Shown: one piece after another, positions 14,845-34,356 of the stretch
How positions within the stretch are numbered: position 1 is the first letter of the stretch
How the letters are laid out: each line of letters begins with the position of its first letter
DNA from: an uncultured Gemmatimonadaceae bacterium
GTDB lineage: Bacteria; Gemmatimonadota; Gemmatimonadetes; Gemmatimonadales; Gemmatimonadaceae
Length of the DNA stretch: 64,000 nt
Assembly (NCBI GenBank): GCA_963822945.1
Contig: CAWGJO010000004.1
Coordinates: 105,821 to 169,820 of the forward strand
Direction: 5' to 3'
Notes under the pieces: generated by a model
Told to the model about the DNA's origin: nothing
The model's input: the letters and a program-made list of their open reading frames with translations, nothing else
Database searches by the model: none
Position numbers and translations under genes: made by a program

Positions 14845-16332
14845 GTGGAACTCGCCGCCGACGCGTTGGTCAAACGGTATCCCGGGGTGCTCGCGCTGGA
14901 CGGCGTGAGCATCGTCGTGCGCGGCGGTGAGGTCCACGCCGTGGCGGGGGAGAACGGGGCCGGCAAATCCACCCTGATGAAGATCCTCTCCGGCGCCGTG
15001 CGGCCCGACGCCGGCACGCTGACCGTCGACGGCCAGCTGGTCCGCTTCGAGACCCCGCACGACGCGCATGCCGCCGGGATCCGGATGATCCATCAGGAGT
15101 TGAGTCTCGTGCCGGAGCTGTCGGTGGCCGAGAACATCTTCCTGGGCGCCGAGCCGCGACATCGCGGAATCGTGGACCGCGACCGGCAGACGCGCGACGC
15201 GCGCGCGGTGCTCGACCGCCTGGGGCAAACGCAGCTCGACCCGGGCGCGCGGGTGGCGGATCTGCCGCTGGCGGCGCGCCAGATGACCGAGATCGCCAAG
15301 GCGGTCGCGGCCCGGGCCCGGGTGCTGATCATGGACGAGCCCACCGCCATCCTGGCGCAGGCCGAGACCGACGTGCTGTTCCGCGTCATCGAGCAGCTCC
15401 GCGACGAGGGCGTGGCGGTGGTGTACATCTCGCACCGGCTGGACGAGATCTTCCGTGTGGCAAACCGCGTCACCGTGCTTCGCGACGGACAGCGGGTGAC
15501 GACGGCGCCGGTGTCCGAACTTTCGCGTGGCGAGATCGTACGGCTGATGGTGGGGCGCGAACTCGCCACCGGCTATCCGGCCCGAACCGCGGAACCGGGG
15601 GCCGAGATGCTGCGACTGGAAGGCGTCAGCGCGGGGCCGGTTCACGACGCGTCGCTCGTGCTGCGCCGCGGTGAGATCGTTGGGCTGGTGGGGCTCATCG
15701 GCGCCGGGCGTACCGAGCTGGCACAGGCCATTTTCGGCGCGACGCCGATGCGAGCAGGGCAGATGCTGCTGGAGGGCGCGCCGTTCCGGCCGCGGTCGCC
15801 GCGCGAGGCCATCGACGCCGGCGTGGCGCTCCTGCCGGAAGACCGCAAGCGGCAGGGACTCGTGCTCATGGGCGCCATCCGCGAGAACGTTTCGCTGCCG
15901 TCCCTCCCGACGCTGGCGCCCCGGGGCGTGGTGGACCGGGCCCGCGAGCGCGCCGGCGTCGAGAAGTGGATCGAGGCGCTGGGCATTCGCACGCCGTCGC
16001 TCGATCGGCCCGCGCAGCAGCTCTCGGGAGGCAATCAGCAGAAGGTGGTGCTGGCCCGCTGGATGCTGCGCCACTCCCGCGTGTTGCTGTTCGACGAACC
16101 CACGCGGGGCATCGACGTGGGCGCCAAAGCCGAGATCTACGCGCTCATGCGGCGGCTGGCCGAGGACGGCGCGGCGATTCTCATGATATCCTCCGACCTT
16201 CCCGAGGCACTCGGCATGGCCGACCGGCTGATCGCGATGCGCAACGGACGCATCGTGGGGCAACTGACGCGCGACGAGGCGACGCAGGACCGCGTCGCGA
16301 CGCTCATCCTCGGCGAGAGCGCGGCGGCATGA
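14845..16332 (+). CDS. rbsA: Sugar ABC transporter ATP-binding protein with two NBDs, RbsA-like
   Basis: GENGAGKSTL, LIMDEPT, YISHRL, PEDRKRQGL, LSGGNQQKVVLARW, FDEPTRGIDVGAK. Confidence 0.93.
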   Translation: MELAADALVKRYPGVLALDGVSIVVRGGEVHAVAGENGAGKSTLMKILSGAVRPDAGTLTVDGQLVRFETPHDAHAAGIRMIHQELSLVPELSVAENIFLGAEPRHRGIVDRDRQTRDARAVLDRLGQTQLDPGARVADLPLAARQMTEIAKAVAARARVLIMDEPTAILAQAETDVLFRVIEQLRDEGVAVVYISHRLDEIFRVANRVTVLRDGQRVTTAPVSELSRGEIVRLMVGRELATGYPARTAEPGAEMLRLEGVSAGPVHDASLVLRRGEIVGLVGLIGAGRTELAQAIFGATPMRAGQMLLEGAPFRPRSPREAIDAGVALLPEDRKRQGLVLMGAIRENVSLPSLPTLAPRGVVDRARERAGVEKWIEALGIRTPSLDRPAQQLSGGNQQKVVLARWMLRHSRVLLFDEPTRGIDVGAKAEIYALMRRLAEDGAAILMISSDLPEALGMADRLIAMRNGRIVGQLTRDEATQDRVATLILGESAAA

Positions 16333-17285
16333 CCTCCTCGCCGGCGCGGTGGCAGCGCATTGCCGACTACATGCTCGTGGTGGCGACGGTGGTGGAGGCG
16401 GCGGTGTTCGCCGGCATCGCTCCCGGGTTCTTCTCGCTCGCCAACGCGGTGAACGTGCTGCTGAGCGTGGCCGTCACGGGCATCCTCGCCGTCGGCATGA
16501 CGGCGGTGATCCTCACGGCGGGCATCGATCTGTCGGTGGGATCGGTGGTGGCGCTCACCGGCGTCACCGGCGCGATGGCCGCGTCGCACGGCTTCATGCC
16601 GGCCACGATGGCGCTCATCGTCGCCGTGCTCGTCGGGACGGCCACCGGCGTGGTGAACGGGACGCTGACCGCCTATCTGCAGGTGCCGGCGTTCGTGTCG
16701 ACGCTGGCCATGCTCACCATCGCGCGGGGGCTGGCCTTCATCGTGTCCGGCGGGCGCAGCATCGGCGACCTGCCGTCGTCGTTCGGCGCGCTGGGACGGT
16801 CGGTGCTGCTCGGCATTCCGGCGCCGGTGCTCGTGATGGCGGCGGTGATGCTGGTGGGCGCGTTCGTGCTCCGCCGCACCGTGTTCGGCCGCCACATCTA
16901 CGCCATCGGCGGCAACACCGAGGCGGCGTGGCTGGCCGGCGTGAACACCAAGCGGGTGATCTGGTGGGTGTACGTGCTCAACGGCGCGCTGGCGGGCATC
17001 GGCGGGCTGACGCTGGCCTCGCGACTCGGCGCGGGCGTGCCGAACGCGGGGCAACAGTACGAATTGGACGTGATCGCGGCGGTGGTCGTGGGCGGCGCCT
17101 CTCTGTTCGGCGGCCGCGGGACGATAGCCGGCACGCTCTGGGGTACGGTGTTCATCGGCGTGCTGACCAATGGGCTCAATCTGGCGAACGTCGATCCCTA
17201 CGTGCAGAAGATCGCGCTGGGCGTGGTGATCGTGTTGGCGGTGATCGGCGACGAGATCAGCCGCCGGAAGCGCGCGACGGGGTAG
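16329..17285 (+). CDS. rbsC: Sugar ABC transporter permease, RbsC-like
   Basis: GIDLSVGSV, VPAFVSTL, FGRHIYAIGGN, YELDVIAAVVVGG; ATGA overlap with rbsA. Confidence 0.93.
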   Translation: MTSSPARWQRIADYMLVVATVVEAAVFAGIAPGFFSLANAVNVLLSVAVTGILAVGMTAVILTAGIDLSVGSVVALTGVTGAMAASHGFMPATMALIVAVLVGTATGVVNGTLTAYLQVPAFVSTLAMLTIARGLAFIVSGGRSIGDLPSSFGALGRSVLLGIPAPVLVMAAVMLVGAFVLRRTVFGRHIYAIGGNTEAAWLAGVNTKRVIWWVYVLNGALAGIGGLTLASRLGAGVPNAGQQYELDVIAAVVVGGASLFGGRGTIAGTLWGTVFIGVLTNGLNLANVDPYVQKIALGVVIVLAVIGDEISRRKRATG

Positions 17286-18957: not shown

Positions 18958-19515
18958 TCAGGGGGTCTCGATCTGCACCCGGCCCTCGACCACGGCCGTC
19001 CATCCCGTGGGTCGATGCACGAGTTTGTAGATGCGCTCGAACCGGAGCGGGCCCACGCCGACGCTGGTCGGTGTCGAGTAGCGTTGCACGTACAGATTCA
19101 CGCTCGCCGTATCGCCCGGCATCTGGAACACCTCCGAGAACCGGACCACGTAGCCCGCCATCGGGGCGTTGCAGTGGGCCAGCTTGCCTCCCTGGCTGGT
19201 GGGCTCGCAGGTGCCCTGTACGATGTGGCTCTCGAGGAGGCTGTTCCGCAGCCCGCTGGTCATCCTCTCGGTGCCCGCGCCGTAGCCGCCCGTCCGCGGG
19301 AGCAGCCTGGGGTCCAGCAGGAGGTAGAGCGACGGGTCTCCCACCTGGAAGGCGCCGCCCACGGCCTCCTGATAGATCGCGACCCGGTCGCGGAGCGGCA
19401 GGTCGGCCACCTTCAGGCCGTGGCCCCGGACGTACGATTCCGCGGGGTTGGGCGCGCAGCCCACCGTCGCCAGGGCAACGAAGACGAGAGTCCAGGTGCG
19501 GCGTGATGAGATCAT
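18958..19515 (-). CDS. Hypothetical lipoprotein
   Basis: MISSRRTWTLVFVALATVGC lipoprotein signal; globular composition in a coding-like frame. Confidence 0.6.
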   Translation of the reverse strand: MISSRRTWTLVFVALATVGCAPNPAESYVRGHGLKVADLPLRDRVAIYQEAVGGAFQVGDPSLYLLLDPRLLPRTGGYGAGTERMTSGLRNSLLESHIVQGTCEPTSQGGKLAHCNAPMAGYVVRFSEVFQMPGDTASVNLYVQRYSTPTSVGVGPLRFERIYKLVHRPTGWTAVVEGRVQIETP

Positions 19516-19644
19516 CGGGGATCGGGATTGGGAGGCAAGACGACCGGAAACCGGTCGTCGGAACCGAGTCGGTGACCGACGTCCGCGGCGTGGAGCGTAC
19601 CGGGTACCGAAATGTAACGCGCTCGATCCGTCATCGGATGCGAG

Positions 19645-19683
19645 CAACGCCGCCCGGCCCCGCATCGGGGCCGGGCGGCGTTG
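19645..19683 (-). terminator. Perfect 18-bp hairpin downstream of the cupredoxin gene
   Basis: CAACGCCGCCCGGCCCCG-cat-CGGGGCCGGGCGGCGTTG, 25 nt after the stop at 19709. Confidence 0.65.
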
Positions 19684-19708
19684 TCGGAGCCGATGCATAG
19701 CCGCCGGG

Positions 19709-20561
19709 TCAGTCGACCTTGGAATTCAGCATCATGCCGTGCATGAAGTGCGGCTTGCCGTCCTTGGCGTCCGGGATGAAGCACATCGTGACGTAATTCC
19801 CGGCGCTGAAATCGGCCGAGAAGTACGCGGTCCGGCCCGGCGCTTCGGGAGCGATGCCGCCGACGGCGTGGGCGGGCGGGGGCCCGGCCGGCTTCACCAT
19901 CCATTTCGCGAAATCTTCCGCCGTCTTGCCGGAGTCGAGCTTGATGATCTCGAGCTCGTGCATCTGCGGCCCGTTGTTCGTGACGGCAAACACGTGGTGA
20001 CCGGCCGTGATGGGCGTGGAGTACGTGAACGAATAGTCCGCCAGCGCGACGTCGACATCCGCTTTGGGCGCGACGCGACGTATCCGCGGCAGCGCCGCTG
20101 CTCGCCACCGCCGTGAACGCATGCATCATGCCCTTCATGAAGTGCGGTACGCCGCCAGGGACGTCCACCATGCAGAGAATCGCATAATTGCCGGGCGTGA
20201 GGTTCAGCGTGGCGTTCGTGCTGTTGCCCGGGTCGGGCGCGTTGGGGCCTCCGATCGCGACGGCCCAGGCGGGCGGCGGACCGGGGTTTTTGAGGGCCGC
20301 CGCGAGGTCGCTCATCGTCTTGCCGCTGTCGAGGCGGAAGATCGTCGCGTGATGGAAGCTCGGCCCGTCGTTGATCAGGGTGAAGGTGACGAAGCCGGAG
20401 GGCACCGTGTCGGGCGCCACGTAGGCGAAGTCCTTGGCATGGATGGTGACGGCTGCGGGTGCGGCAGGCTGCGCAGGGGATGCCGGTTTCTCGTGGCTGC
20501 TGCAGGCGGCGAGGGCGGCGAGTGCGCCAACGACCGCCACGTACGTGATGCGGGCACGCAT
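19709..20561 (-). CDS. Tandem two-domain cupredoxin (blue-copper) lipoprotein, frameshift near 20080
   Basis: Lipobox LAAC; domain 1 NDGPSFHH...GNYAILCMVDVPGGVPHFMKGM; domain 2 NNGPQMHE...GNYVTMCFIPDAKDGKPHFMHGM. Each has the His...Cys-His-Met type-1 copper ligand pattern. Confidence 0.8.
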
Positions 20562-20769
20562 GGGGCTGGCCTCAATTGTGGAGGTGATGAAGGGGAGTGG
20601 GACTTCGCGCGGTACGATGCGCCGCCAGGGTTGCGGCGTCAATGCCGACGGCGAGAATCCCCATTGGAGGAGCGGACGCTAAGAGAGTGCGAGGGAAGCC
20701 GCGTGCTCTCGACGCAGTCGCTCGTGGATGGTAGTTTGGCGCGTCACCCACCTGATGGATCCCGAACCC

Positions 20770-22399
20770 ATGTATCGATTCGTGCGGTCTGCCCCGATGC
20801 TCGCGGCAGGCGCAGCGCTGGTTGCGTTCGCCGGTCCCCTTCGCGCCCAGCGCGAGCCCGTCGACACCGCGATGATCGCGAAGATCCGCGACGTCGGCCT
20901 GCACCACTCGCAGGTCATGGACCACATGATCTGGTTGGCCGACATCTACGGGCCGCGCCTCGAGGGCAGCCCGGCCACGGAGAAGGCCGGGCAGTGGGCG
21001 ATGAAGACGCTCGAATCGTGGGGTCTCCAGAACGTGCACGAGGAGCGCTTCCCCTTCGGCAAGGGGTGGGAACTGCAGCACTTCTACGCCGAGATGGTCG
21101 CGCCGCAGGAGCAGCCGATCATCGCCATGCCCAAAGCATGGACGCCCGGCACCAATGGGCCCGTGGAAGCCGAGGTCGTGCGTCCCGACATCCAGAGCGC
21201 GGCCGACTTCGCGAAGTACCACGGCACGCTGCGCGGCAAGATCGTGCTCACCCAGCCGGCGCGCATGGTGCGCATGCTCACGGGCAAGATCATCCTCACG
21301 TACACGCCGAAAATGATCGATGAGATGATGACGCCACTGCCGCCGGGCTGGAAGCCGCCGGCGCGCCGCCCGACCGCGGCGCAGGCGTTCCGGCGTCGGC
21401 TGTTGAAGTTCTACCAGGACGAGGGCGTGGTGGCACTGCTCGACCGGGGCATGGATGCCGACACGGTCACCGGCGGAAGCGACCTGACGTGGTACGCGCA
21501 GCACACCGACGGCGGCACGTTCATGGTGCATGGCGGGCGGTCCGCACGACGCAACGGCCGGCAGCGGTCTGCCCGAGATCACGCTCGCGGTGGAGCACTA
21601 CAACCGCATGGTGCGCATCCTCGCCAAGGGGGTCCCGGTGAAGATGCGCCTCGACGTGGAAACGAAGTTCTTCGACGAGACCACGCCGCGCGGCTTCAAC
21701 ATCATCGGCGACATCCCGGGCACCGATCCCGAACTGAAAGATCAGATCGTGATGATCGGCGCCCATTTCGATTCGTGGCACGGGGGTACCGGCGCCACCG
21801 ACAACGGCGCGGGCGACGCCGCGATGATGGAAGCCATGCGGATCCTCGAGCAGGTCGGAGCCAAGCCACGCCGCACCATCCGCATCGCGCTGTGGGGCGG
21901 GGAGGAGGAAGGACTGCTCGGCTCCAAAGCCTACGCTCGCGCGCACATCGGCGATGTGGCGACCGGCACGCGCAAGCCCGGTTTCCAGACCTTCGACGCG
22001 TACTACAACCTCGACAACGGGAGCGGGAAGATCCGCGGCATCTGGATGGAGAACAATCCGCGTGTGGCGCCGATCTTCAAGGCATTCCTCGCGCCATTCA
22101 GGGACCTGGGCGTCGACTTGTTCAGCCCCCGTCCGGTACGCTCCACCGATCACCAGACCTTCTCCGAGGGCTTCGGCCTTCCCTCGTTCCAATTCGTACA
22201 GGAACGGTTGGAATACGCGGCGCGCACGCACCACACCAACATGGACGTCGTGGATCGCGTGCAGCCGGATCAGTTGAAACAGGCGGCGACCGTGGTCGCG
22301 GCGCTGGCGTATCTCACTGCGCAGCGGGATTCGATGCTGCCGCGGCGGCCGCTCCCGGCCGCCGTGGGAACTCGTCCGGGGGCTACGGGGTCCAAGTAG
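20770..22399 (+). CDS. Secreted M28 family metallopeptidase (carboxypeptidase Q-like), frameshift near 21535
   Basis: Signal peptide; LADIYGPRLEGSP; IGAHFDSWHGGTGATDNGAG; LWGGEEEGLLGS; YNLDNG; STDH; HHTNMD. Confidence 0.88.
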
Positions 22400-23371: not shown

Positions 23372-23434
23372 TGTGAGCCGTCTCACCGTCTCGGCGCAGG
23401 CGGACGGTGAGCCCGGTCACTGATCGGCGTCACA
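23372..23434. promoter_or_regulatory. Cluster of three CRP/FNR-family-like boxes (TGTGA-N6-TCACA type)
   Basis: TGTGA-gccgtc-TCACC (23372-23387), GGTGA-gcccgg-TCACT (23406-23421) and ACTGA-tcggcg-TCACA (23419-23434), all in one 130-nt intergenic gap. Confidence 0.55.
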
Positions 23435-23497: not shown

Positions 23498-24037
23498 ATG
23501 AAGACACCCCGTGTTTTGATCGCGGCCTTCGCTGCCGCGCTCACCCTCGTCAGCGTCAGCTGTAACGATTCAACCCCGGTTGCACCCGTCGCGCCCGTAT
23601 CAGCGACGCCGCAACCTCAAGCCTCCCTCATCGGGACGCTCCTGGCGCCCACCGGGCTCCTCGCCTGCACGCCGCAACCGTACGACTCGGTCACCAAGGT
23701 CATCGGACCCGAGGGCGGCTCCCTCAAGGTTGGGGCGAACTGGTTCTACGTGCCGCCGAGGGCGCTCGACCGGGATGTGGCAATCACGGCCGTGGCGCCG
23801 CGTGGCGACGTCAACCTCGTCCAGTTCCAGCCCCAGGGCCTGAAATTCTCCCGGCCGGCCGTGCTCACGATGAGCTACGCCAACTGCGGACTGCTCGGCC
23901 GCCTGCTGCCCCGCCACATCGCGTACACGAACGATGCGCTGCAGATCCTGGAGTTGCTCCCGGCGCTGGACAATTTCTTCCGGCATACGGCGACGGCGCG
24001 GATCGGGCATTTCTCGGGCTACGCGATCGCATACTGA
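23498..24037 (+). CDS. ZU5-like domain lipoprotein ending in an HFS motif
   Basis: GGAG RBS; signal ...LVSVSC; IGPEGGSL...VPPRAL...I...FQPQGLKFSRPAVLTMSYANC (ZU5 pattern); C-terminus IGHFSGYAIAY*. Confidence 0.7.
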   Translation: MKTPRVLIAAFAAALTLVSVSCNDSTPVAPVAPVSATPQPQASLIGTLLAPTGLLACTPQPYDSVTKVIGPEGGSLKVGANWFYVPPRALDRDVAITAVAPRGDVNLVQFQPQGLKFSRPAVLTMSYANCGLLGRLLPRHIAYTNDALQILELLPALDNFFRHTATARIGHFSGYAIAY

Positions 24038-24058
24038 CCGCTGAACGAGACTGCTACC

Positions 24059-25699
24059 GTGTCACACCTTCACACCGGGGATCTCCAAGATTCTCCGGAG
24101 ACTCCGGATGCGGCGAAATGGCTGACCGCCGCGCGCCAGCACGAGCGCGACGGCGCCATTGCTCTCGCCATTACGACCTACGAGCGGATCGCTTCGGCGC
24201 ACGACGGGACGGTGGACTATCGGACCCATTGCGAAGCCTTCCGGCGGCTCGCGGTCCATCGGTCGCGGCGGGGTGAGGGCGCGGTGGCGCGGGACCTCTG
24301 CCGCCGGAGCCACGACTTGGCGCGCCACTCGGGTGACGCCCTTCTCGCCGCCGAGGCGCTGAATACCATGGGCGGCATACACATCGCCACCGGATCGCTC
24401 GAGGAGGCGCGCCAAGCGTTCCTTGAAGCGTTGCGTTTGGGCGGCCCGGTGCGCCCGCTTCGCGCCCGGATCGAGCAGAACCTCGGGATTCTCGCCAACA
24501 TTCAGGGCGCCATCGACGAGGCACTGGCGTGGTACGGTCGCTCGCTCGAAGAGTACCGCGCGGCCGGGGACGAGAATGGCTGTGCCATCGCCTTCAACAA
24601 TCTCGGGATGGCGAGCGCCGACCGCGGTCTGTTCGAGGAAGCCGATCGCTACTTTCACGAAAGTCGGCTGCTGGCCGAGCGGACCCGCGATCTGCACCTC
24701 CTGGGCCTTGCCCATGCGAATCATGCCGAGGTGCACGCATTCCGCCAGCGCTACGACGCCGCATTGCGGAGCGCGGACGAAGCCCTGCGGGTCTTCGAGC
24801 AGATCGGCGCCCGCGCCCCGAAGTCCGAGGCATACCGGGTGATCGGCATGGTCTACCGCGATACCGGCCGCCCGGTGCTCGCCGAGTCGCGCCTGCGTTC
24901 GGCCATCGAGACCGCGGTGGCCACCGGTTCCGTGCTCGCCGAGGCCGAGGCGTCGCGCGAACTCGCCACGCTTTACCAGACCCTGGGGCGGAATCAGGAG
25001 GCACTCTCGCGCCTGAACGCGGCCCACCGGTTGTTCCACCGGCTCGATGCCCGGGTCGATCTGGTCAACGTGAACGGCAAGGTACAGGCCCTGCAGGCGA
25101 CGTATCTCGCGGTGGTGCGCGACTGGGGCCAGTCCATCGAGTCCAGCGACAGTTACACCTTCGGCCATTGCGAGCGGGTGGCCGAGAACGCGGCGGCCGT
25201 GGCCGTGGCGCTCGGCCTGGACGACGCCGAGGTGCTCACGATCCGATTGGGCGCGTACCTCCACGACGTCGGCAAGGTGCGCGTGCCCCACGAAGTGCTC
25301 AACAAGCCCGGGCGGCTGACGGACGCCGAGATGGAGATCATCCGCATGCATCCGGTGTGGGGCGTTGAACTTCTCGCCGAGGTCGAATTCCCGTGGGCCA
25401 TCAAGCCGATCATCCGCTCACACCACGAGAAGTACGACGGCACCGGCTATCCCGATCGGTTGTTGGGCGACGAGATCCCGCTGGCGGCGCAGATCGTGGG
25501 CGTGGCCGACGTCTTCGACGCCCTCACGACCACCCGCTCGTATCGCGGGGCACTCGCCCCCGACGTGGCGCTGGGCGAGATCGAGCGGTGCCGGCACTGG
25601 TGGTCCCCCCGCGTCTACGCGGCAGCCATGTCGGCACTGCGCGCCCGCGCATCCGCCGCCGGGCCTGCGGCGGAGCGCACCCGGCCACACGCCGCTTGA
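24059..25699 (+). CDS. TPR-repeat plus HD-GYP domain protein (putative c-di-GMP phosphodiesterase)
   Basis: TPR-like repeats (AEALNTMG, IEQNLG, AFNNLG, EAYRVIG); HCERVA, YLHDVGK, HPVWG, HHEKYDGTGYP, ADVFDALTTTRSYR. Confidence 0.92.
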   Translation: MSHLHTGDLQDSPETPDAAKWLTAARQHERDGAIALAITTYERIASAHDGTVDYRTHCEAFRRLAVHRSRRGEGAVARDLCRRSHDLARHSGDALLAAEALNTMGGIHIATGSLEEARQAFLEALRLGGPVRPLRARIEQNLGILANIQGAIDEALAWYGRSLEEYRAAGDENGCAIAFNNLGMASADRGLFEEADRYFHESRLLAERTRDLHLLGLAHANHAEVHAFRQRYDAALRSADEALRVFEQIGARAPKSEAYRVIGMVYRDTGRPVLAESRLRSAIETAVATGSVLAEAEASRELATLYQTLGRNQEALSRLNAAHRLFHRLDARVDLVNVNGKVQALQATYLAVVRDWGQSIESSDSYTFGHCERVAENAAAVAVALGLDDAEVLTIRLGAYLHDVGKVRVPHEVLNKPGRLTDAEMEIIRMHPVWGVELLAEVEFPWAIKPIIRSHHEKYDGTGYPDRLLGDEIPLAAQIVGVADVFDALTTTRSYRGALAPDVALGEIERCRHWWSPRVYAAAMSALRARASAAGPAAERTRPHAA

Positions 25700-25708
25700 G
25701 CAGCAGGG

Positions 25709-26440
25709 TCAGACCAGCCGGCGTCGCTCCTGCTGCCCGTCGTACGCCGGCTTGGGCGCCCACAGCCGCCGCAGATGGCCGGTGGCCGCTTCCAGCGCCT
25801 CGCGATTCTCGAGGATGATCGCGCCTTTCGGGGTCGAGATGATGCCGTGCGACGAGAAGTCGCTGAGCACGCGGGACACCGTCTCGCGGCTCGACCCCAC
25901 CATCTGCGCCATCACCTGATGGGTGGGCGGTTTGGGGATGCGCCGCCCGTCGTGGGGCGCGGCCAACTGGAGCAGCAGGTGCGACACGCGGCCCGGGACG
26001 TCCAGCAGGATCAGGCCGCCGATCTTGTGATCCGCTTCCTTGAGGCGGCGGCTGAGTGAGCGGAGCAGGCCGATGGCCACGCCCGGCATCTCCATGACCT
26101 GCCGGTACAGGTCGTCGCGGCGAAGCAGGAGGAGCTGCGATTCCTCGGTCGCGATCACCGTCGACGTTCCCGGATCGTCGTCGAACAGCGCCATCTCGCC
26201 GAAGAACTCCCCCGCGCCCAGCATCGACAGGATGACCTCGCGCCCGTCCTCGGCGATCAACATCGACTTCACCTTCCCCGCGATGATGATGTAAAGGGTG
26301 TCGCCGGGCGAGGTCCCGGAAACGATCACACTGTTCTTGGAATAATCGCGCATGTGCGCGAGCTGTCCGATCTTGTCCAACTCCGACTCGCGGAGCTGGG
26401 CGAACAGGGAGATTCCCCGAAGGAGTGTCGTGGCCGTCAT
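25709..26440 (-). CDS. Crp/Fnr family transcriptional regulator
   Basis: LRGISLFAQL, GDTLYII, GEFFGEMAL, HTH region PTHQVMAQMVGSSRETVSRVL. Confidence 0.92.
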   Translation of the reverse strand: MTATTLLRGISLFAQLRESELDKIGQLAHMRDYSKNSVIVSGTSPGDTLYIIIAGKVKSMLIAEDGREVILSMLGAGEFFGEMALFDDDPGTSTVIATEESQLLLLRRDDLYRQVMEMPGVAIGLLRSLSRRLKEADHKIGGLILLDVPGRVSHLLLQLAAPHDGRRIPKPPTHQVMAQMVGSSRETVSRVLSDFSSHGIISTPKGAIILENREALEAATGHLRRLWAPKPAYDGQQERRRLV

Positions 26441-26635
26441 CGAGAGGGCGCCGAGGTGTGGGAGCCAGGAGCAGGAACGCGCGAACGCGTGGGTGGATGC
26501 GCCAACGATGGGTGTGATCGGCACGATCCGCAAGGCGTGTGGGCCAACCACTGACCCGGCAGCGGGGCCCGCGCCGCCCAGGCGCGCCGGTTACATTCTG
26601 GAGACGATGTTCCACGCTTTCCCGCTCACCCCGCC

Positions 26636-27198: not shown

Positions 27199-27286
27199 CC
27201 CGAGGCGCCCCCGGCCCGCGATGACAGCCGGCGTTCCGCGGAGTAAGATGGGGGAGCCCGAGCCCAATCCGGAGTCCATTTTCCAC

Positions 27287-28969
27287 ATGCGTCGCTCTCT
27301 CCTCGTTCTCGTCCTTGCCCTCGCGCCGCTGGGCACCAGCGGAGCGCAACGGTCCGCACCGGTGTTCACGCACGCCGACACGCTGCGGGGAACCAACGGT
27401 CCTGCCCGCGCCTGGTGGGACGCCACGTTCTACGATCTGCACGTGCGCGTGCAGCCCGCCGACAGCAGCATCAGCGGGTACAACGCGATCACCTACCGGG
27501 TGCTCCAACCCGCGCGCGAGATGCAGATCGATCTGCAGCAGCCGATGGTCGCCGACAGCTTCGTGCAGGACGGCCGGCGTCTGGACGCGCGCCGCGACGG
27601 CAACGCCTTCTTCGTCGCGCTCGTCGCACCGCAGCAGGCGGGAGAGCACCGGACGGTGACGGTGTACTACCACGGCAAGCCGCGCGCGGCCCGGCGCCCC
27701 CCCTGGGACGGCGGGTACATCTGGCAGCACGACAGCCTGGGACACGAGTGGGTGGCCACCGCCAACGAGGGGCTGGGCGCGAGCGTCTGGTGGCCCCTCA
27801 AGGATATCCTGTCGGACGAGCCGGACAGCCAGCGCATCGCCATCACCGTGCCCGACCCGATGATCGACGTTTCCAACGGCCGCCTCCGCTCGGTGACGCC
27901 CAACGCCGACGGGACGACGACGTACGAGTGGTTCGTCACCGAGCCGATCAACAACTACGACGTCGAGGTGAACGCCGGCGACTACACGCACTTCAGCACC
28001 ATCTACCACGGGGAGGACGGCACGCTCACCATGGACTTCTGGCCGCTGGAATACCACCTGGATGCTGCCAGGCGGCAGTGGGCGCAGGCGACGTCCATGA
28101 TGAAGTGCTTCGAACACTGGTTCGGGCCCTATCCCTGGTACGCCGACGGATACAAGCTCATCGAGGCGCCGCACCTGGGGATGGAGCATCAGAGCGGAGT
28201 GGCGTACGGCAACCACTTCGAGAACGGCTATCTGGGACGCGACCTCTCGCACACGGGGCTCGGCCTCGCCTGGGACTTCATCATCGTGCATGAGAGCGCG
28301 CACGAGTGGTGGGGAAACAGCGTCAGCGGCAAGGACCACGCCGACATGTGGATCCACGAGAGCTTCGCCAACTATGCCGAGAGTCTCTACGAGGAGTGCC
28401 AACAGGGGAAGGAGGCCGGTGAACGGTACGTGATCGGCACACGCGCCAACATCCAGAACGACCGGCCGATCATCCCGGCCTACGGCGTCAACGCCGAGGG
28501 ATCGGGAGACATGTACTACAAGGGCGGGAACATGTTGAACACGATCCGGCAGATCGTGAACGACGACGCCAAGTGGCGCGGCATTCTGCGGGGACTCCAG
28601 CAGACCTTCCGCCATCAGACCGTGAGCACGTCCCAGGTGGAGCAATACATGAGCGCGCAGGCAGGCGTAGACCTGAGCAAAGTGTTTCAGGAATACCTGA
28701 CGACGACCATGATCCCCCAACTCGAGTATCGGTTCGACGGGCGTACGTTGTCCTACCGCTGGGCGCATGTGGTGCCCGGCTTCGACATGCCGGTCAAGGT
28801 GACCCTGGCCCCCGATCGCTACTCGTTCATTCATCCCACCGAGCAGTGGCAGGCGACGGCGACGTCGCTGCCGGCCCCCGCTGATTTCAAGGTGGACGAG
28901 AACTTCTACGTCACGACCCGCGACGTCGGCACCGGCGCCAAGGGCGCGTCACCCGGAGAGAAGCCATGA
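27287..28969 (+). CDS. Secreted M1 family aminopeptidase
   Basis: Signal peptide; GMEHQ; HESAHEWWGN-x-WIHE (HExxH-x18-E); MYYKG. Confidence 0.93.
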   Translation: MRRSLLVLVLALAPLGTSGAQRSAPVFTHADTLRGTNGPARAWWDATFYDLHVRVQPADSSISGYNAITYRVLQPAREMQIDLQQPMVADSFVQDGRRLDARRDGNAFFVALVAPQQAGEHRTVTVYYHGKPRAARRPPWDGGYIWQHDSLGHEWVATANEGLGASVWWPLKDILSDEPDSQRIAITVPDPMIDVSNGRLRSVTPNADGTTTYEWFVTEPINNYDVEVNAGDYTHFSTIYHGEDGTLTMDFWPLEYHLDAARRQWAQATSMMKCFEHWFGPYPWYADGYKLIEAPHLGMEHQSGVAYGNHFENGYLGRDLSHTGLGLAWDFIIVHESAHEWWGNSVSGKDHADMWIHESFANYAESLYEECQQGKEAGERYVIGTRANIQNDRPIIPAYGVNAEGSGDMYYKGGNMLNTIRQIVNDDAKWRGILRGLQQTFRHQTVSTSQVEQYMSAQAGVDLSKVFQEYLTTTMIPQLEYRFDGRTLSYRWAHVVPGFDMPVKVTLAPDRYSFIHPTEQWQATATSLPAPADFKVDENFYVTTRDVGTGAKGASPGEKP

Positions 28970-31062
28970 TAGGGAAACCCCTGGGATCCATCGCCGCGGC
29001 CGCGGCGCTCGTCGCCGTCATCGCTGCGTGCAGCAAGGGCGCGGAGTCGACTGGCCAGCAGACGCCGCCGCAGGCGGCGGTGGCCGACACCGGTCCCGTG
29101 TTCGACGTCGCGCTGCTGGATACGACGGTGTCGGCATGCACGGATCTCAACGCGTTCGTCAACGACAAGTGGATCAAGGCCAATCCGATTCCACCGGACA
29201 AGACCGCCTGGAATACCTTCGCCGCGCTCTCACAGAAGAGCCTCGACGAGCAACACCAGATCGTCGAGCAGGCCGACCAGCAGGCCGCGAACGCCAAGGC
29301 CGGTTCGATCGAGCAGAAGATCGGGTGGCTGTACCATTCGGGCATGGACACGGCGGCCATCGCGCGCGCCGGATACCAGCCGATCAAGCCGGAGCTCGAC
29401 GCCATCGACGCCCTGAAGGCGCCCAAGGACGTGGTCGCCTGGCTCGACGGCGCCTTCGCCTCCGGCAACGGGCAGCTGTTCCGCTTCGGCTCCCGCGTCG
29501 ACTACCACAACGCGAAGATGCAGATCGGCTCCGCATCGCAGGGCGGCCTCGGCCTGCCGACGCCGGACTACTATACGAAGGCGGAGTACAAGGATCTCCG
29601 CGACGCCTACGTGAAGCACATCGCCAAGCTGTTCGAACTCACCGGGGTGCCCGCCGCCGAGGCGAGCCAACGGGCCGACGCGGCGATGGCGATCGAGACG
29701 AGCCTCGCCAAGCACTCGCTGTCTCGCGTGGCGCTCCGCAATCCGAAGAACCAGTACCACTTCGTGACCATCGCCCAGGCCAACGCCGTGACCCCGCACT
29801 TCGACTGGGGCACGTTCTTCAAGGTGCAGGGCGTGGCGCCGGGCAAGGGCTTCTCGCTTTCCCAGCCGACCTTCTTCGCCGGCATGGACAGCCTGCTCGC
29901 CCACGCGCCGATCGAAGCCTGGAGGGCCTATCTGGCGTTCCACACGATCGACGCCGCCGCGCCGTACCTCTCGCCCCCGTTCGAGGCCGAGGACTTCGCG
30001 TTCAAGGGCACGACGCTGCAGGGGCAGCCGCAGCAGTCCCCGCGGTGGGAACGCGTGCTGGGCAGCGTGAACCGGTCCATGGGGCAGGCCCTGGGGCAGC
30101 TCTACGTGGCCAAGTATTTCCCGCCCGAAGCCAAGCAGCGCGCCGAGGAGCTGGTGAAGAACGTGCGCGACGCCCTCAAGGCGCGCATCCAGAATCTGAG
30201 CTGGATGAGCGAGACGACCAAGAAGCAGGCGCTCGACAAGTGGCAGAAGTTCCTGCCCAAGATCGGCTACCCCGACCATTGGCGCGATTGGAGCGGCCTC
30301 ACCATCAGCCCCGATCACTACTACGCCAACGTCCAGGCGGCCGCGAAGTTCAACTACGAGTACGATATCAACAAGATCGGCCAGCCCACCGACCGCTACG
30401 AGTGGGGGATGACGCCGCAGACGGTGAACGCGTACTACAGCCCGTCGCAGAACACGATCAACTTCCCGGCCGCCATCCTGCAGCCGCCCTTCTTCTACGC
30501 CAAGGGCGATGACGCCATCAACTACGGCGCCATCGGTGCGGTGATCGGCCACGAGTCGAGCCATGGCTTCGACGACCAGGGCAGCCAGTTCGACGGTGAC
30601 GGCAACAACTCCAACTGGTGGACGAAGGCCGACCGGGAACGGTTCGACGCGCGCACGGCAAAGCTCGTCAAACAGTACGACGGGTATGCGCCGTTGGCCG
30701 ACCAACCCGACAAGCACGTGAACGGGCAGCTCACGCTGGGCGAGAACATCGCCGACCTCGGCGGGCTGAACGTGGCCTACGACGCGCTCCAGACCGCCCT
30801 CAAGAACAATCCCAAGGAAGCCGCCGAGAAGATCGACGGCTATACCCAGGACCAGCGCTTCTTCATGAGCTGGGCGCGCGTGTGGCGCGGTTCGATGCGC
30901 GAGAAGGCGCAGCTCGTGAGTCTCAACACGAATCCCCATTCGCCGGGCAAATTCCGCGCCGACGGCCCCCCGTCGGACATGCCGGAATTCGCGAAGGCGT
31001 TCTCCTGCAAGGACGGCGACCCGATGGTGCGTTCGGGCACGGCCCGCGTGGCCATCTGGTAG
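28966..31062 (+). CDS. M13 family (neprilysin/PepO-like) metallopeptidase lipoprotein
   Basis: Lipobox IAAC; GGLGLP, KIGYPD, VNAYY, FPAAILQPPF, HESSHGFDDQG, GENIADLGG, PHSP. Confidence 0.95.
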   Translation: MIGKPLGSIAAAAALVAVIAACSKGAESTGQQTPPQAAVADTGPVFDVALLDTTVSACTDLNAFVNDKWIKANPIPPDKTAWNTFAALSQKSLDEQHQIVEQADQQAANAKAGSIEQKIGWLYHSGMDTAAIARAGYQPIKPELDAIDALKAPKDVVAWLDGAFASGNGQLFRFGSRVDYHNAKMQIGSASQGGLGLPTPDYYTKAEYKDLRDAYVKHIAKLFELTGVPAAEASQRADAAMAIETSLAKHSLSRVALRNPKNQYHFVTIAQANAVTPHFDWGTFFKVQGVAPGKGFSLSQPTFFAGMDSLLAHAPIEAWRAYLAFHTIDAAAPYLSPPFEAEDFAFKGTTLQGQPQQSPRWERVLGSVNRSMGQALGQLYVAKYFPPEAKQRAEELVKNVRDALKARIQNLSWMSETTKKQALDKWQKFLPKIGYPDHWRDWSGLTISPDHYYANVQAAAKFNYEYDINKIGQPTDRYEWGMTPQTVNAYYSPSQNTINFPAAILQPPFFYAKGDDAINYGAIGAVIGHESSHGFDDQGSQFDGDGNNSNWWTKADRERFDARTAKLVKQYDGYAPLADQPDKHVNGQLTLGENIADLGGLNVAYDALQTALKNNPKEAAEKIDGYTQDQRFFMSWARVWRGSMREKAQLVSLNTNPHSPGKFRADGPPSDMPEFAKAFSCKDGDPMVRSGTARVAIW

Positions 31063-31084: not shown

Positions 31085-32200
31085 ATGACGACACGACGCG
31101 AGTTTCTCACCCGCGCCACGGTCGCGGGCGGCGCGCTGCTGGGTGGGCTGGTTCCGGGAGTGGGGCGCCTTGGCGCCCTGCTCGCGGAGCCGGCGCCCGG
31201 TGGGGCCATGGACATTCTCATCCTCGGTGGCACCGGCTTCATCGGTCCGCATCTGGTTCGGCGGGCCGTGGCACGGGGCCACCGCGTGACCATCTTCACC
31301 CGCGGCAAGCACCACGCCGACCTGCCGGACTCGGTGATCCGATTGATCGGCGACCGCAACGGCAAACTGCAGGCCCTCGAGGGCAAGCGCTGGGATGCCG
31401 TGATCGACGACTCGGCCACCAACCCCGATTGGGTGCGCCAGTCCACGCAGCTCCTGCGCGATGCCGCCGGCAGCTACCTCTTCACGTCGTCCACCGGCGT
31501 GCATTATCCGTATCGCACGCGCGGACTCGACGAGTCCGATCCACCGCTGTACGAGGCCGCGGATCCCAAGGACGGATCGGCGGCGTTCGGCGTGGCGAAG
31601 GCGCGCTGCGAGCGCGTGCTCGACGCCGCGTTCGGCGATCGCGCCATCGTCGTGCGGCCCACGTACATCGTGGGCCCGGGCGATACCACCGACCGTTTTC
31701 CCTATTGGCCGCAGCGGCTGGCGCGGGGCGGGGAGGTGCTGGCGCCGGGCAGGGACGACGACCCCGTGCAGTTCATCGACGTGCGCGATCTGGCGGCGTT
31801 CATGATTCACCTGGTCGAGTCGGGCCGGCGTGGCACCTACGATGCCGCCGGTCCGGCCACGCCGATGACGGCGCCCGCATTCTATCGCCTGGCCGTCCAG
31901 GCGCTGCACGCAACCGTCACGCTGGTCCGCGTGGACGACTACGCCTTCCTCAAGGAGCACGGCATCGTCGAGGCCATTCCCTGGGCGTATCTGGCCGGGA
32001 ACGACTACGGCATGATGTCGATTCGCAACGACCACGCGGTGGCTGCGGGGCTCGCCTTCCGCCCGGTGGGCGAGACGGTGCGCGATACGCTGGCCTGGTG
32101 GCGGACGCTCCCCGCGGCCCGCCGCGACCACCCGAAGTTCTCCATCACGGCGGCGCAGGAAGCAGCCGCACTCGAGGCCTGGCATGCCCGGGCCGGCTAG
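31085..32200 (+). CDS. Tat-signal NAD-dependent epimerase/dehydratase (extended SDR-like)
   Basis: TRREFL twin-arginine signal; ILILGGTGFIG; VRPTYIVGPGD; QFIDVRDLA. Confidence 0.88.
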   Translation: MTTRREFLTRATVAGGALLGGLVPGVGRLGALLAEPAPGGAMDILILGGTGFIGPHLVRRAVARGHRVTIFTRGKHHADLPDSVIRLIGDRNGKLQALEGKRWDAVIDDSATNPDWVRQSTQLLRDAAGSYLFTSSTGVHYPYRTRGLDESDPPLYEAADPKDGSAAFGVAKARCERVLDAAFGDRAIVVRPTYIVGPGDTTDRFPYWPQRLARGGEVLAPGRDDDPVQFIDVRDLAAFMIHLVESGRRGTYDAAGPATPMTAPAFYRLAVQALHATVTLVRVDDYAFLKEHGIVEAIPWAYLAGNDYGMMSIRNDHAVAAGLAFRPVGETVRDTLAWWRTLPAARRDHPKFSITAAQEAAALEAWHARAG

Positions 32201-32271
32201 ATGACCCCTCCGGTTGGGCGGAGTGCCGCCCGGCCAAACCCACGTTCCCGCCGTCCCCGGAGCGAATTCGA

Positions 32272-34356
32272 ATGACCCGCACCCCCACGAACTTCCGGCG
32301 CTTCGCGCCCGTTGCCCTTCTCGCCGTCCTCGGTACCGCCTGCAAGATCGCCGAACTGCCGCCGGCCGCCGACACCACCGCGCTCAAGCCGCTCAAGGTG
32401 GTGGACGTCGCCTACATGGACACCACGGTCAAGGCGTGCAACGACTTCTTCGAGTTCGCCGACGGCACGTGGCTCAGGACCGACACGATTCCGGCGGCGT
32501 ATTCCTCGTCGGGCGTGTTCAAGGACATGGCCGACCGCAACGAGTTGGTGGTGAAGTCGGTGCTCGAGGACGCGATGGCCAAGGCGCCCTCACTTCCCGA
32601 CACCAGCACCGAGCACAAGCTCGGCACGTTCTACGCCAGCTGCATGGATTCGACGGCCATCGAGTCCGCCGGGCTCACACCGCTGAAGCCGACGCTGGCG
32701 GCCATCGACTCGGTGACGCAGCGCTCGGCGCTCATCCCCGCGGTGGCGCGGCTGCAGGTGAGCGGCGCCAACGTGCTGTTCCGGTACTATCCCAGCGTGG
32801 ATGCGCACGACGCGGCGCACTACGTCGCCGACCTCGACCGGGGCGGGTTGGGGCTCCCCGACCGCGACTACTATCTGGACAAGACGCCGTCGGCCGATTC
32901 CACGCGGCGCGCGTACGTGGCCCACGTCGCGCGGATGCTGCAACTGGCCGGTCAGGACAGCGTGAGCGCCGGTCGGGACGCCGCGCGCGTGTTGTCGCTG
33001 GAGACCGAACTCGCCAGGGCGCAGCTCACGCGCGTGGCGCGGCGCGATCCCAAGGCGAGTGACCACCAGATGCCGGTGGCCGGGTTGCAGCGCATCGCGC
33101 CCAACGTGCAGTGGGCGTCGTACTTTCACGATATCGGCATCAGCAGCCCGCTCGCCAAGGTGAACGTGGACGAGCCGGCGTACATGCGCACGGTGAGCGC
33201 GTTGGTGGCCAGCCGTCCGTTGGAGGACTGGCGGGCGTACCTGCGCTACCACACGCTTTCGAATGCCGCGCCCTGGCTCGACTCCGCGTTCGTGCAGGAG
33301 GACTTCGCGTTCAATCAGCGATTCTCCGGGGCCAAGCAGCTGCTCCCGCGCTGGAAGCGGTGTCTTCGGGCCACCGACGGCGAGATCGGCGAGGCGCTGG
33401 GGCAGGCCTACGTGGCCCGCACCTTCCCGCCCGAGGCCAAGGCGCGGGCGAAGCGGGTGATCGACGACGTACGGGCGGCGTTCAAACAGCGGTTGCTCAA
33501 GCTCACCTGGATGTCCGAAGCCACGCGCGCGCACGCGCTCGACAAGCTGGCGCGCATGGGCGAGAAGGTCGGCTATCCCGATCACTGGCGCGACTATTCC
33601 AACTTGCGGGTGACCCCCGGGCCCTTCGTGCTCAACGTGGCCGCCGCCGACCGCTTCGAGTGGAACCGCACGGTCAACCGGCCCGGGCAGGCGGTGGACC
33701 GGAGCGAGTGGGACATGACCGTGCCCACCGTCAACGCGTACTACGATCCGAGCAAGAACGAGATGGTGTTCCCCGCGGGGGCGCTGGTGCCGCAGACCTT
33801 CGATCCGCATGCCGACGACGGGGCCAACTACGGCTCCCTCGGGGCGAGCTGGGCGGGGCACGAACTCACACACGGGTTCGATGACGAGGGCCGACACTAC
33901 GACGCCCAGGGGAACCTGACCGATTGGTGGACCGCGGCCGATTCCAAGGCGTTCAATGCTCAGGCCGAACTCGATGCCAAGCAGTACGACGGCTATATCG
34001 CAGTGGACACCTTCCACGTGAACGGGCACCTCACACTCGGGGAGAACATCGCCGACTATGGCGGCGCGCTCACCGGCTACGACGCGCTCGAGGCGGCGCT
34101 GAAGCGCGACGGCCGGCCCGGGCTGATCGACGGGTACACGCCGGAGCAACGCTTCTTCATCTCGTGGGCGCAGAGCTTCCGCGCGCATTCGCGTCCCGAA
34201 CGCGAGCGGCTCATGGTGAAGGTCGACCCGCATTCGCCGGACCGGTGGCGGGTGAACGGGCCGCTGTCCGACATGGAAGCCTTCGCCAAGGCGTTCGGGT
34301 GCAAGCCCGGCGATCCGATGGTGCGGCCACGGGCGCTCGTGCCCAAGATCTGGTAG
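32272..34356 (+). CDS. M13 family metallopeptidase lipoprotein (second paralogue)
   Basis: Lipobox LGTAC; ACNDFFEFA, GGLGLPDRDYY, KVGYPD, VNAYY, HELTHGFDDEG, GENIAD, DPHSP. Confidence 0.95.
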   Translation: MTRTPTNFRRFAPVALLAVLGTACKIAELPPAADTTALKPLKVVDVAYMDTTVKACNDFFEFADGTWLRTDTIPAAYSSSGVFKDMADRNELVVKSVLEDAMAKAPSLPDTSTEHKLGTFYASCMDSTAIESAGLTPLKPTLAAIDSVTQRSALIPAVARLQVSGANVLFRYYPSVDAHDAAHYVADLDRGGLGLPDRDYYLDKTPSADSTRRAYVAHVARMLQLAGQDSVSAGRDAARVLSLETELARAQLTRVARRDPKASDHQMPVAGLQRIAPNVQWASYFHDIGISSPLAKVNVDEPAYMRTVSALVASRPLEDWRAYLRYHTLSNAAPWLDSAFVQEDFAFNQRFSGAKQLLPRWKRCLRATDGEIGEALGQAYVARTFPPEAKARAKRVIDDVRAAFKQRLLKLTWMSEATRAHALDKLARMGEKVGYPDHWRDYSNLRVTPGPFVLNVAAADRFEWNRTVNRPGQAVDRSEWDMTVPTVNAYYDPSKNEMVFPAGALVPQTFDPHADDGANYGSLGASWAGHELTHGFDDEGRHYDAQGNLTDWWTAADSKAFNAQAELDAKQYDGYIAVDTFHVNGHLTLGENIADYGGALTGYDALEAALKRDGRPGLIDGYTPEQRFFISWAQSFRAHSRPERERLMVKVDPHSPDRWRVNGPLSDMEAFAKAFGCKPGDPMVRPRALVPKIW

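Follow-up and report, generated by a model that had tools for sequence, protein, structure and literature searches.

Here we report that a stretch of 64,000 nucleotides from an uncultured Gemmatimonadaceae bacterium (contig CAWGJO010000004.1; the whole stretch is called the window below) holds a pair of adjacent genes that is likely to represent an undescribed peptide-signalling system of soil Gemmatimonadota. The first gene encodes a lipoprotein of 179 amino acids with a ZU5-type fold, whose C-terminus reads HFSGYAIAY and is followed by the stop codon, and the second encodes a protein of 546 amino acids made of tetratricopeptide repeats (TPR) and an HD-GYP domain, its open reading frame (ORF) starting after a gap of 21 nucleotides. 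The gene pair, the fold match, the conservation of the motif, the linkage of the two genes across the phylum and the co-variation of peptide and groove are observed. We regard it as highly probable that the lipoprotein tail binds the TPR domain, and on balance we think it probable that the pair works as a Rap/Phr-like system in which the pro-peptide is a self-cleaving ZU5 lipoprotein and the output is the turnover of cyclic di-GMP (c-di-GMP).

Fold and terminal motif of the lipoprotein

Family profiles say little about the lipoprotein, which matches Pfam ZU5 weakly (E = 0.025, below the cut-off) and is covered by no NCBIfam family; a designed protein, the sole PDB result of its profile sequence search, was judged spurious. 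Its export signal was read from the sequence as a basic N-region and a hydrophobic helix leading to Cys22, which is present in all 28 aligned homologues, and the same alignment holds an invariant pair, Cys57 and Cys130, that is likely to form a disulfide. In the AlphaFold2 model (mean predicted local distance difference test, pLDDT, 81.6) a beta-sandwich begins at about residue 57 and ends with a strand at residues 176-178. All 11 Foldseek matches of this model at E <= 0.001 are ZU5 domains, as are the top five VIA-align matches (Z 8.7-11.5; the best, 6m3q, with an rmsd of 2.5 A over 108 aligned residues), and GAIN domains rank after them (Z 6-7.8). Judged by alignment end-points only, Phe172 falls on residue 1212 of NLRP1 (6x6c, Z 5.2) and Ser173 on residue 994 of Nup145N (5hb6, Z 4.3), a residue that is mutated according to the title of that structure, and five GAIN chains also have an alignment end at model residue 172. 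The nucleophile of NLRP1 is Ser1213 (PMC3210808; this and the other cited sources were available in part, and what we say of them concerns those parts). The neighbour cluster in the ESM Atlas, taken as a lead only, is 50% ZU5 with a score of 0.89. On the evidence of the model, the lipoprotein belongs by its fold and by its in-register H-x-(S/T/C) motif to the ZU5/GAIN/Nup98 autoproteolytic superfamily. The initial annotation had proposed a ZU5-type lipoprotein ending in HFS plus GYAIAY, 21 nucleotides before a TPR-HD-GYP gene, and both the reading of the sequence and the fold searches bear this out.

The conservation of the terminus, which the same annotation had named as decisive, is striking. 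All 120 homologues among the matches listed (of 357) end in HFS plus six residues at a length of 165-197 amino acids, so that this terminus is not a matter of chance; their last residue is Trp in 99, Tyr in 14, Phe in 6 and Asp in 1. Among the 150 representatives of 50% clusters that were listed, 141 have the motif near the end and 134 would yield a heptapeptide. Across 307 non-redundant members the motif reads HFS in 275, HFC in 9, HLS in 6 and H-x-T in 2, with Gly, Ser, Thr or Gln in place of the His before x-Ser or x-Thr in 9; a Ser, Cys or Thr stands at the nucleophile position in 303 of the 305 members whose motif could be scored, and the predicted product measures seven residues in 269 and eight in 20, tails of 8-18 residues also occurring. 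These last counts include 80 metagenome loci found partly by the HFS pattern, the tallies of 120/120 and 141/150 being less biased, and three long ORFs with a match in their N-terminal half (L124, L130 and L131; loci are cited by our own numbers) were set aside. The exchange of Ser, Cys and Thr is what an acyl-shift mechanism tolerates and fits the predicted self-cleavage. Cleavage at HF↓S (the arrow marks the cut) has been shown experimentally in bacterial MAIN domains (bioRxiv 10.64898/2026.05.12.724683), and Nup98 and CARD8 tolerate the loss of the His (PMC3210808), which has also been lost at L163, L165 and L166 with a peptide-like tail and a TPR-HD-GYP neighbour kept.

Several loci carry more than one copy of the peptide, either as a tandem duplication within the gene (L060, L077, L093, L100 and L184) or as six carrier genes in a row (L071). 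A second, divergent carrier family (L040, L067, L071, L075, L086, L094, L095, L106, L146 and L182-L184) ends in the same terminal peptide pattern and lies beside the same receptor family. Its members mostly contain an EF-hand-like D-x-N-x-D-G loop, their tails include HF↓C, GF↓T, SF↓S and HY↓S, and they often stand 5' of double-TPR proteins of about 700 amino acids that have no output domain; two of them were scanned against Pfam and gave no match.

Linkage of lipoprotein and receptor genes

The named homologues of the lipoprotein belong to Gemmatimonadales or Gemmatimonadaceae, and its profile matches 95 of 201 genomes of the phylum and, at E <= 1e-20, 143 of 401 genomes of the order. We collected 167 loci from genomes (100 + 13 + 54) and 80 from metagenomes; 157 genome loci were left once 5 duplicates, 4 loci that lacked a terminal lipoprotein and 1 that had no downstream DNA had been removed. 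In 137 of the 157 the gene directly 3' of the lipoprotein gene encodes a TPR protein (101 with HD-GYP), in 148 such a gene lies within the locus, and it is present in 77 of the 78 metagenome loci scored. The genomic linkage that the initial annotation had asked for holds across the phylum, the paired loci covering 50 genera and 7 families. In the first 115 loci no other neighbour family recurs in more than 13, and since the other neighbours vary and some of the lipoprotein/TPR pairs are convergent, the linkage cannot be put down to passive synteny.

In the reverse direction, a hand count of 75 TPR places at E <= 1e-100 found a lipoprotein in the locus in 66 and none in 5, the remaining 4 lying at a contig edge or not being retrieved; the profile used here was built from lipoprotein-adjacent TPR proteins and is biased towards lipoprotein-linked receptors. 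Among 40 further TPR loci picked by hand, the profile found a lipoprotein in 22, weakly in 1 and not in 17. With the patterns used, no relative was confirmed in viral contigs. Within the genome under study, the only two TPR-family matches each adjoin one of the two copies of the lipoprotein. The second cassette (L001; contig C20, 641790-644275) consists of an AraC-type regulator, a ZU5 lipoprotein ending in HFSSYAIAL and, 30 nucleotides later, a TPR-only protein of 334 amino acids. An AraC-type gene also stands directly 5' of the TPR gene at L171 and L177, in neither of which was a lipoprotein found.

The receptor and a model of peptide binding

The partner protein was described in the initial annotation as cytoplasmic, with many TPRs and an intact HD-GYP domain, and this agrees with what we found. 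Pfam detects TPR_12 (E = 2.5e-29, six stretches), TPR_MalT and HD_5 (E = 1e-34), in NCBIfam the protein passes the cut-off of the HDIG domain only, and the HD-GYP motifs are all in place (H370, HD402-403, H431, HH455-456, GYP463-465, D484/D487 and RxYR493-496). Neither a signal peptide nor a membrane segment was seen on reading the sequence; the N-terminus has no hydrophobic segment, and the highest Kyte-Doolittle mean over 19 residues (1.33) lies within the HD domain. The best PDB sequence matches are 5z7c (E = 4.5e-40) and 4mcw, the first being a 3'3'-cGAMP phosphodiesterase, and the genome holds at least five GGDEF matches. The HD-GYP domain is predicted to be a cyclic-dinucleotide phosphodiesterase, which may act on c-di-GMP, on 3'3'-cGAMP or on another cyclic dinucleotide.

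The model of the TPR domain (pLDDT 93.2) is closest in fold to LGN/Pins (Z 29.8/28.7), with RapI (Z 26.0), APPBP2, RapH (25.2), the Rap protein of phage phi105 with its peptide (24.4), NprR (20.8) and, lower, PlcR among the further matches. LGN, Rap and the like are solenoids with a peptide groove, yet a common helical fold alone proves no function. In 55 aligned receptors N102, N141, N181 and R62 are invariant and N221 and R137 nearly so, and this ladder of Asn residues is kept in most of the distant receptors. In Rap, PlcR and PrgX a conserved Asn holds the backbone of the peptide (PMC3601992). The receptor family occurs as TPR-HD-GYP, TPR-only, double-TPR, TPR-HD-GYP-GGDEF and TPR-HD-GYP-GGDEF-AAA-TPR proteins. 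Receptors of 1,600-1,700 amino acids are encoded at L170 (1934-6766), L175 (5963-11065) and L176 (1551-6323), in the order TPR, HD-GYP, GGDEF, AAA_16 NTPase and a second TPR block (by Pfam for L170 and L175).

We co-folded the TPR domain (amino acids 13-343) with the C-terminal 30 residues of the lipoprotein, using an alignment of 55 rows for each; the mis-paired second lipoproteins of L093 and L094, L127, tails longer than seven residues (L060, L110 and L113) and the frameshifted L112 were left out of these alignments. The three runs scored 0.82, 0.82 and 0.80 and share at least 70% of their contacts (partner pLDDT 53), as compared with 0.02 for the best control, unrelated 30-mers on the same TPR domain giving 0.01-0.02. 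At the mark used, 116 of 157 solved complexes pass, as do 2 of 215 mismatched pairs; these counts apply roughly with the alignments used here. Confident contacts involve lipoprotein residues 169-179 only, best from Tyr175 to Tyr179, and on the TPR side N141, N181, R137, I144, I177, N180, G106, N102 and L217. The modelled peptide, which ends close to R137 and R62, runs extended along N102, N141 and N181 in a conserved Asn-ladder groove, as Phr does in Rap, although in our case the evidence is a co-fold model.

Co-variation of peptide and groove

If peptide and groove interact, their residues may be expected to change on the same branches of the tree. For each pair of columns we counted the branches on which the lipoprotein and the TPR column both change and compared this count with the expectation from the load of changes on each branch; the tree was built without the peptide and interface columns, and the purpose-written parsimony script is sensitive to the tree. 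Over 108 non-redundant pairs, the mean z for peptide columns against predicted-interface columns was 0.53 (10 of 150 above 3), in contrast to 0.0 for the lipoprotein body against the interface (19 of 3210 above 3) and -0.03 for the peptide against non-interface columns. In 53 held-out pairs with less than 90% identity to the alignment of the model the mean z was 0.46 (permutation p = 2e-4; control with body columns p = 8e-4), and with an 80% hold-out (40 pairs) the enrichment was kept (0.41; p = 2e-4 and 0.0016). The top three held-out pairs of the peptide join Ala176 to M184, L217 and N180, all in the predicted interface, and Ala176-L217 ranks second of the 27,300 column pairs. The direction of change is compensatory, Val at peptide position 4 being accompanied in most cases by Ile at 184 and a smaller residue at 180. 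Where peptide position 5 is Leu, residue 106 is Cys or Leu in 10 of 11 cases (5 of 97 otherwise). Raw mutual information ranks peptide position 2 first. Both the co-folding of the tail with the TPR domain and the co-variation across genomes that the initial annotation had called for have in this way come out in favour of an interaction, and the alternative that it had left standing, a peptide that is a structural beta-strand only, fits them poorly.

A putative peptide circuit and its alternatives

In the mechanism that we favour for Gemmatimonadota, which are diderm, the lipoprotein would be exported, and its ZU5 domain would then cut itself at HF↓S, presumably by an N-to-O/S acyl shift. To free the cut strand from the sandwich would take unfolding of the domain, reduction of Cys57-Cys130 or degradation, and such conditional release would let the peptide signal the state of the envelope or the turnover of cells. 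The freed SGYAIAY would probably be re-imported, perhaps by an Opp-type transporter, and would bind the TPR groove and switch the HD-GYP phosphodiesterase, and with it the c-di-GMP level of the cell, by an allosteric coupling that may pass through the helix joining TPR and HD-GYP. Our guess is that the phosphodiesterase would be activated and c-di-GMP lowered. The fuller picture towards which we lean slightly is that of a loaded peptide capsule, a ZU5/GAIN lipoprotein that cuts its own last beta-strand and holds it until the envelope is perturbed or turned over, whereupon the heptapeptide enters the same or neighbouring cells and switches Rap-like TPR receptors that set cyclic-dinucleotide levels. 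As regards import, a gene for a family-5 peptide-binding protein is present in 16 of 113 loci (about 0.8 expected), and at L170 an oppABC operon stands directly 5' of a receptor of the family, with a divergent carrier gene about 3.7 kb away; oppABC co-occurs at L176 as well.

A number of observations weigh against this self-cleaving, re-imported signal, and its main gap is the release and the route of the peptide. In GAIN, MAIN and FIIND domains the strand is not set free by the cut (bioRxiv 10.64898/2026.05.12.724683; PMC3210808), and a 7-mer offers no load for a pulling force. Of the 16 loci with a binding-protein gene, 8 come from one genus, and the three Opp-type loci of the genome under study all lie away from the cassette. 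The distant members L163 and L166 read E-F-A, with neither the His nor the nucleophile, and have kept the tail and the TPR-HD-GYP neighbour. Nine lipoprotein loci show no TPR gene in the retrieved DNA, and receptors without a nearby lipoprotein make up the 17 of 40 hand-picked loci mentioned above (2 of them at contig edges; the sample is biased). The peptide is little diversified, one sequence being common to many genera, where kin-specific signalling would lead one to expect more diversity. Solved TPR-peptide complexes, such as those of LGN and Rap, may have contributed to the co-fold. Within the co-change analysis, the pair A176-L217 is lost at the stricter 80% hold-out, the association of Leu5 with Cys/Leu106 comprises only 5 supported independent pairs (4.8 of 5 concordant; p = 0.06), and the charge pairing of peptide position 2 (Arg with E110, D254 or D337) was rejected as independent evidence, being mostly confined to one clade and failing the independent-pairs test.

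The strongest rival explanation does away with import. Here a stall in Sec/lipoprotein export would leave the precursor in the cytoplasm, where its tail, cleaved or merely exposed, would reach the TPR-HD-GYP protein directly. Such a monitor of export solves the problem of topology and renders an importer unnecessary, the gap of 21 nucleotides puts both products together, and all the evidence on binding and co-variation is accommodated, together with the low diversity of the peptide and the two non-cleavable E-F-A variants. We nevertheless consider it unlikely, because the invariant Cys57/Cys130 suggests folding outside the cytoplasm, because genes for peptide importers recur beside the cassette, and because near-invariant catalytic residues with exchange among Ser, Cys and Thr would be needless if the unfolded precursor were the ligand.

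The two further explanations fit less well. Ordinary periplasmic proteases might free the ligand while degrading the lipoprotein, self-cleavage being incidental or limited to trimming the N-terminus, and the E-F-A and His-less variants, the longer tails of 8-18 residues and the many peptidase genes that flank the cassette in the window could be taken in this sense; it is improbable in view of the Ser, Cys or Thr that nearly every member has at the nucleophile position, of the tolerance of Nup98 and CARD8 to His loss (PMC3210808) and of the restriction of the flanking peptidase genes to close relatives. We give equally little credence to the proposal that the heptapeptide is only the last strand of the fold, with the genes co-regulated for another reason and the co-fold reflecting a generic liking of TPR grooves for hydrophobic C-termini: alternating hydrophobic residues and a fixed length do suit a buried terminal strand, orphan receptors and orphan lipoproteins exist, and the score of the co-fold may draw on LGN or Rap complexes known to the model, but the low scores of unrelated 30-mers on the same TPR domain speak against it, and the held-out co-change of peptide and groove columns, the duplicated peptide tails, the two divergent carrier families with the same tail pattern and receptor family and a linkage that survives inversion would all be left unexplained.

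Comparison with known systems

The proposed peptide circuit shares much with the RRNPP systems (Rap/Phr, NprR/NprX, PlcR/PapR, Rgg/SHP, ComR/ComS and AimR/AimP). There, too, the gene of an exported pro-peptide adjoins that of a TPR receptor located in the cytoplasm, the mature signal is formed by the last few residues of the pro-peptide (as predicted here), the peptide lies extended on conserved Asn residues (PMC3601992; modelled here) and peptides are duplicated within the gene (PMC10075063). The pair nonetheless falls outside RRNPP because its pro-peptide, a folded lipoprotein of 179 amino acids, is too large compared with the 10-100 amino acids of RRNPP pro-peptides (PMC10075063); its anchor, predicted maturation and output also differ. 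RRNPP pro-peptides leave through Sec (SPI) and are matured by host peptidases, whereas here a lipoprotein-type export signal and self-cleavage are predicted; the output of their receptors is a helix-turn-helix or a phosphatase, whereas here the output is HD-GYP, sometimes with GGDEF and AAA; and their hosts are Firmicutes rather than Gemmatimonadota. With 546 amino acids the receptor exceeds the 250-500 of RRNPP receptors because HD-GYP has been added, and the stand-alone paralogue of 334 amino acids fits that range. The model of the TPR receptor does not establish common descent from Rap, since LGN/Pins matches its fold best.

MAIN domains (Brogan and Rudner, bioRxiv 10.64898/2026.05.12.724683) likewise have a GAIN-like sandwich and HF↓S, and cleavage and association of the fragments have been shown for them. 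MAIN proteins have a mean mass of 158 kDa, with N-terminal enzymes or adhesins, a C-terminal anchor and release of the N-terminal part; our lipoprotein, by contrast, has an N-terminal lipid anchor, a stand-alone domain and nothing past the last strand, the part predicted to be released is a 7-mer, and it thus lacks the MAIN architecture. The available part of the preprint states that the C-terminal fragment has no known role in signalling, and it mentions neither lipoproteins, TPR, ZU5 nor Gemmatimonadota, although members may be listed in the supplement tables. The GAIN domains of adhesion GPCRs belong to the same fold family (Z values above), and their cut frees a short hydrophobic beta-strand ligand, as we predict here; the Stachel, however, acts in cis and remains attached to its seven-helix receptor, whereas our strand would be a free ligand acting in trans, with a soluble protein of the cytoplasm as its target. 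PIDD1, the FIIND of NLRP1/CARD8, Nup98 and the ZU5 domains of polymorphic toxins have the same fold with an HF↓S or SF↓S site in register (PMC3210808) and release whole domains (UPA-CARD, death domain or toxin) where we predict a terminal 7-mer; the available parts of the literature on these domains describe no case in which a TPR protein senses a terminal peptide. Large toxins and surface proteins of bacteria are known to contain ZU5 autopeptidases (PMC3482391), and wherever the available parts of PMC3482391 and PMC8195603 refer to bacterial ZU5 domains, the context is that of toxins, surface proteins or conflict systems. Our literature search found no description of the lipoprotein/TPR pair; it did not include the ZU5-superfamily survey of Liao et al. 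2014 (J Mol Biol 426:3935), which could mention such lipoproteins.

Should the proposed circuit hold, it would join two principles, self-cleavage that exposes a beta-strand agonist, as in adhesion GPCRs and NLRP1, and cytoplasmic sensing of peptides by TPR proteins, as in Rap/Phr. It would be the first case of signalling by the C-terminal fragment of a bacterial GAIN/ZU5-type domain, a point left open by the MAIN preprint, and would provide a free, trans-acting bacterial counterpart of the Stachel agonist. Peptide-TPR signalling would then extend to a soil phylum with an output of the c-di-GMP type, that is, an RRNPP-style circuit with second-messenger output outside Firmicutes. The core claims are accessible with two soluble proteins and a synthetic peptide of seven residues, and the co-variation points to the residue pairs that should be exchanged.

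Regulation and surroundings of the locus

The features of the locus are collected in Table 1. The sequence GTGA-N6-TCAC, which we take to be a CRP/FNR-type motif, has three matches in the window, two of them 5' of the lipoprotein gene, and a CRP-like palindrome lies 5' of 34 of 101 homologous cassettes, against a mean of 0.28 in shuffled sequences; a convergent Crp-family gene is present in 7 of the clustered loci. A strict sigma-54 pattern was found in none of 271 upstream regions; a looser sigma-54-like motif occurs in 32 of 101, all of the Arg-2 peptide group, and is absent in the window. The CRP-like and the sigma-54-like motif mark two types of upstream region. Genes for sigma-54-dependent activators are present in nine loci (L062, L071, L075-L077, L094, L106, L123 and L126), often within the cassette or just 5' of it, and TPR-only paralogues might regulate such activators. 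Rfam has no match in the window, hence no c-di-GMP riboswitch at the gathering score.

Table 1. Coordinates of the lipoprotein/TPR-HD-GYP cassette and associated features in the window
Feature	Position	Strand	Basis
CRP/FNR-type palindrome GTGA-N6-TCAC, site 1 of 2 5' of the lipoprotein gene, likely regulatory	23373..23386		pattern match
CRP/FNR-type palindrome, site 2	23407..23420		pattern match
ZU5/GAIN-fold lipoprotein, 179 aa, predicted self-cleaving pro-peptide carrier	23498..24037	+	ORF, AlphaFold2 model, fold matches
Lipoprotein-type signal peptide up to invariant Cys22	23498..23563	+	sequence, 28/28 aligned homologues
ZU5-like beta-sandwich, aa 57-179	23666..24034	+	AlphaFold2 model, Foldseek, VIA-align, conservation
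His171-Phe172-Ser173 motif, predicted cut Phe172/Ser173	24008..24016	+	sequence, structural alignment end-points
C-terminal heptapeptide SGYAIAY, aa 173-179, predicted TPR-groove ligand	24014..24034	+	conservation, co-fold, co-change
TPR-HD-GYP protein, 546 aa	24059..25699	+	ORF, Pfam
TPR solenoid, 16 helices, aa 18-328, Asn ladder N102/N141/N181/N221 with R62/R137	24110..25042	+	model, conservation
HD-GYP domain, aa 360-513, predicted cyclic-dinucleotide phosphodiesterase	25136..25597	+	Pfam, PDB sequence matches, motifs
Convergent Crp-family regulator, loosely associated, candidate reader of both palindromes	25709..26551	-	Pfam cNMP_binding and HTH_Crp_2

Genes for exported peptidases cluster around the cassette (20728-22399, 27221-28969, 28966-31062, 31429-34356 and 34497-36473), and clustering of neighbours shows them to be common to close relatives only. 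They include a PepO/M13-like and an aminopeptidase N-like gene (matches below the cut-off), a second of each recognized by eye, and an M28-like gene split across two frames; PepO enzymes break down the peptide pheromones of streptococci. Apparent frameshifts, due to assembly error or decay, affect a copper-binding-type lipoprotein gene (19512-20642, minus strand, continuing in 19709-20122), the M28-like peptidase gene (20728-22399, plus strand) and an M1 peptidase gene (34497-36473, plus strand). Further upstream, at 14845-17285, the window holds ordinary genes for the ATPase and permease of a sugar ABC transporter.

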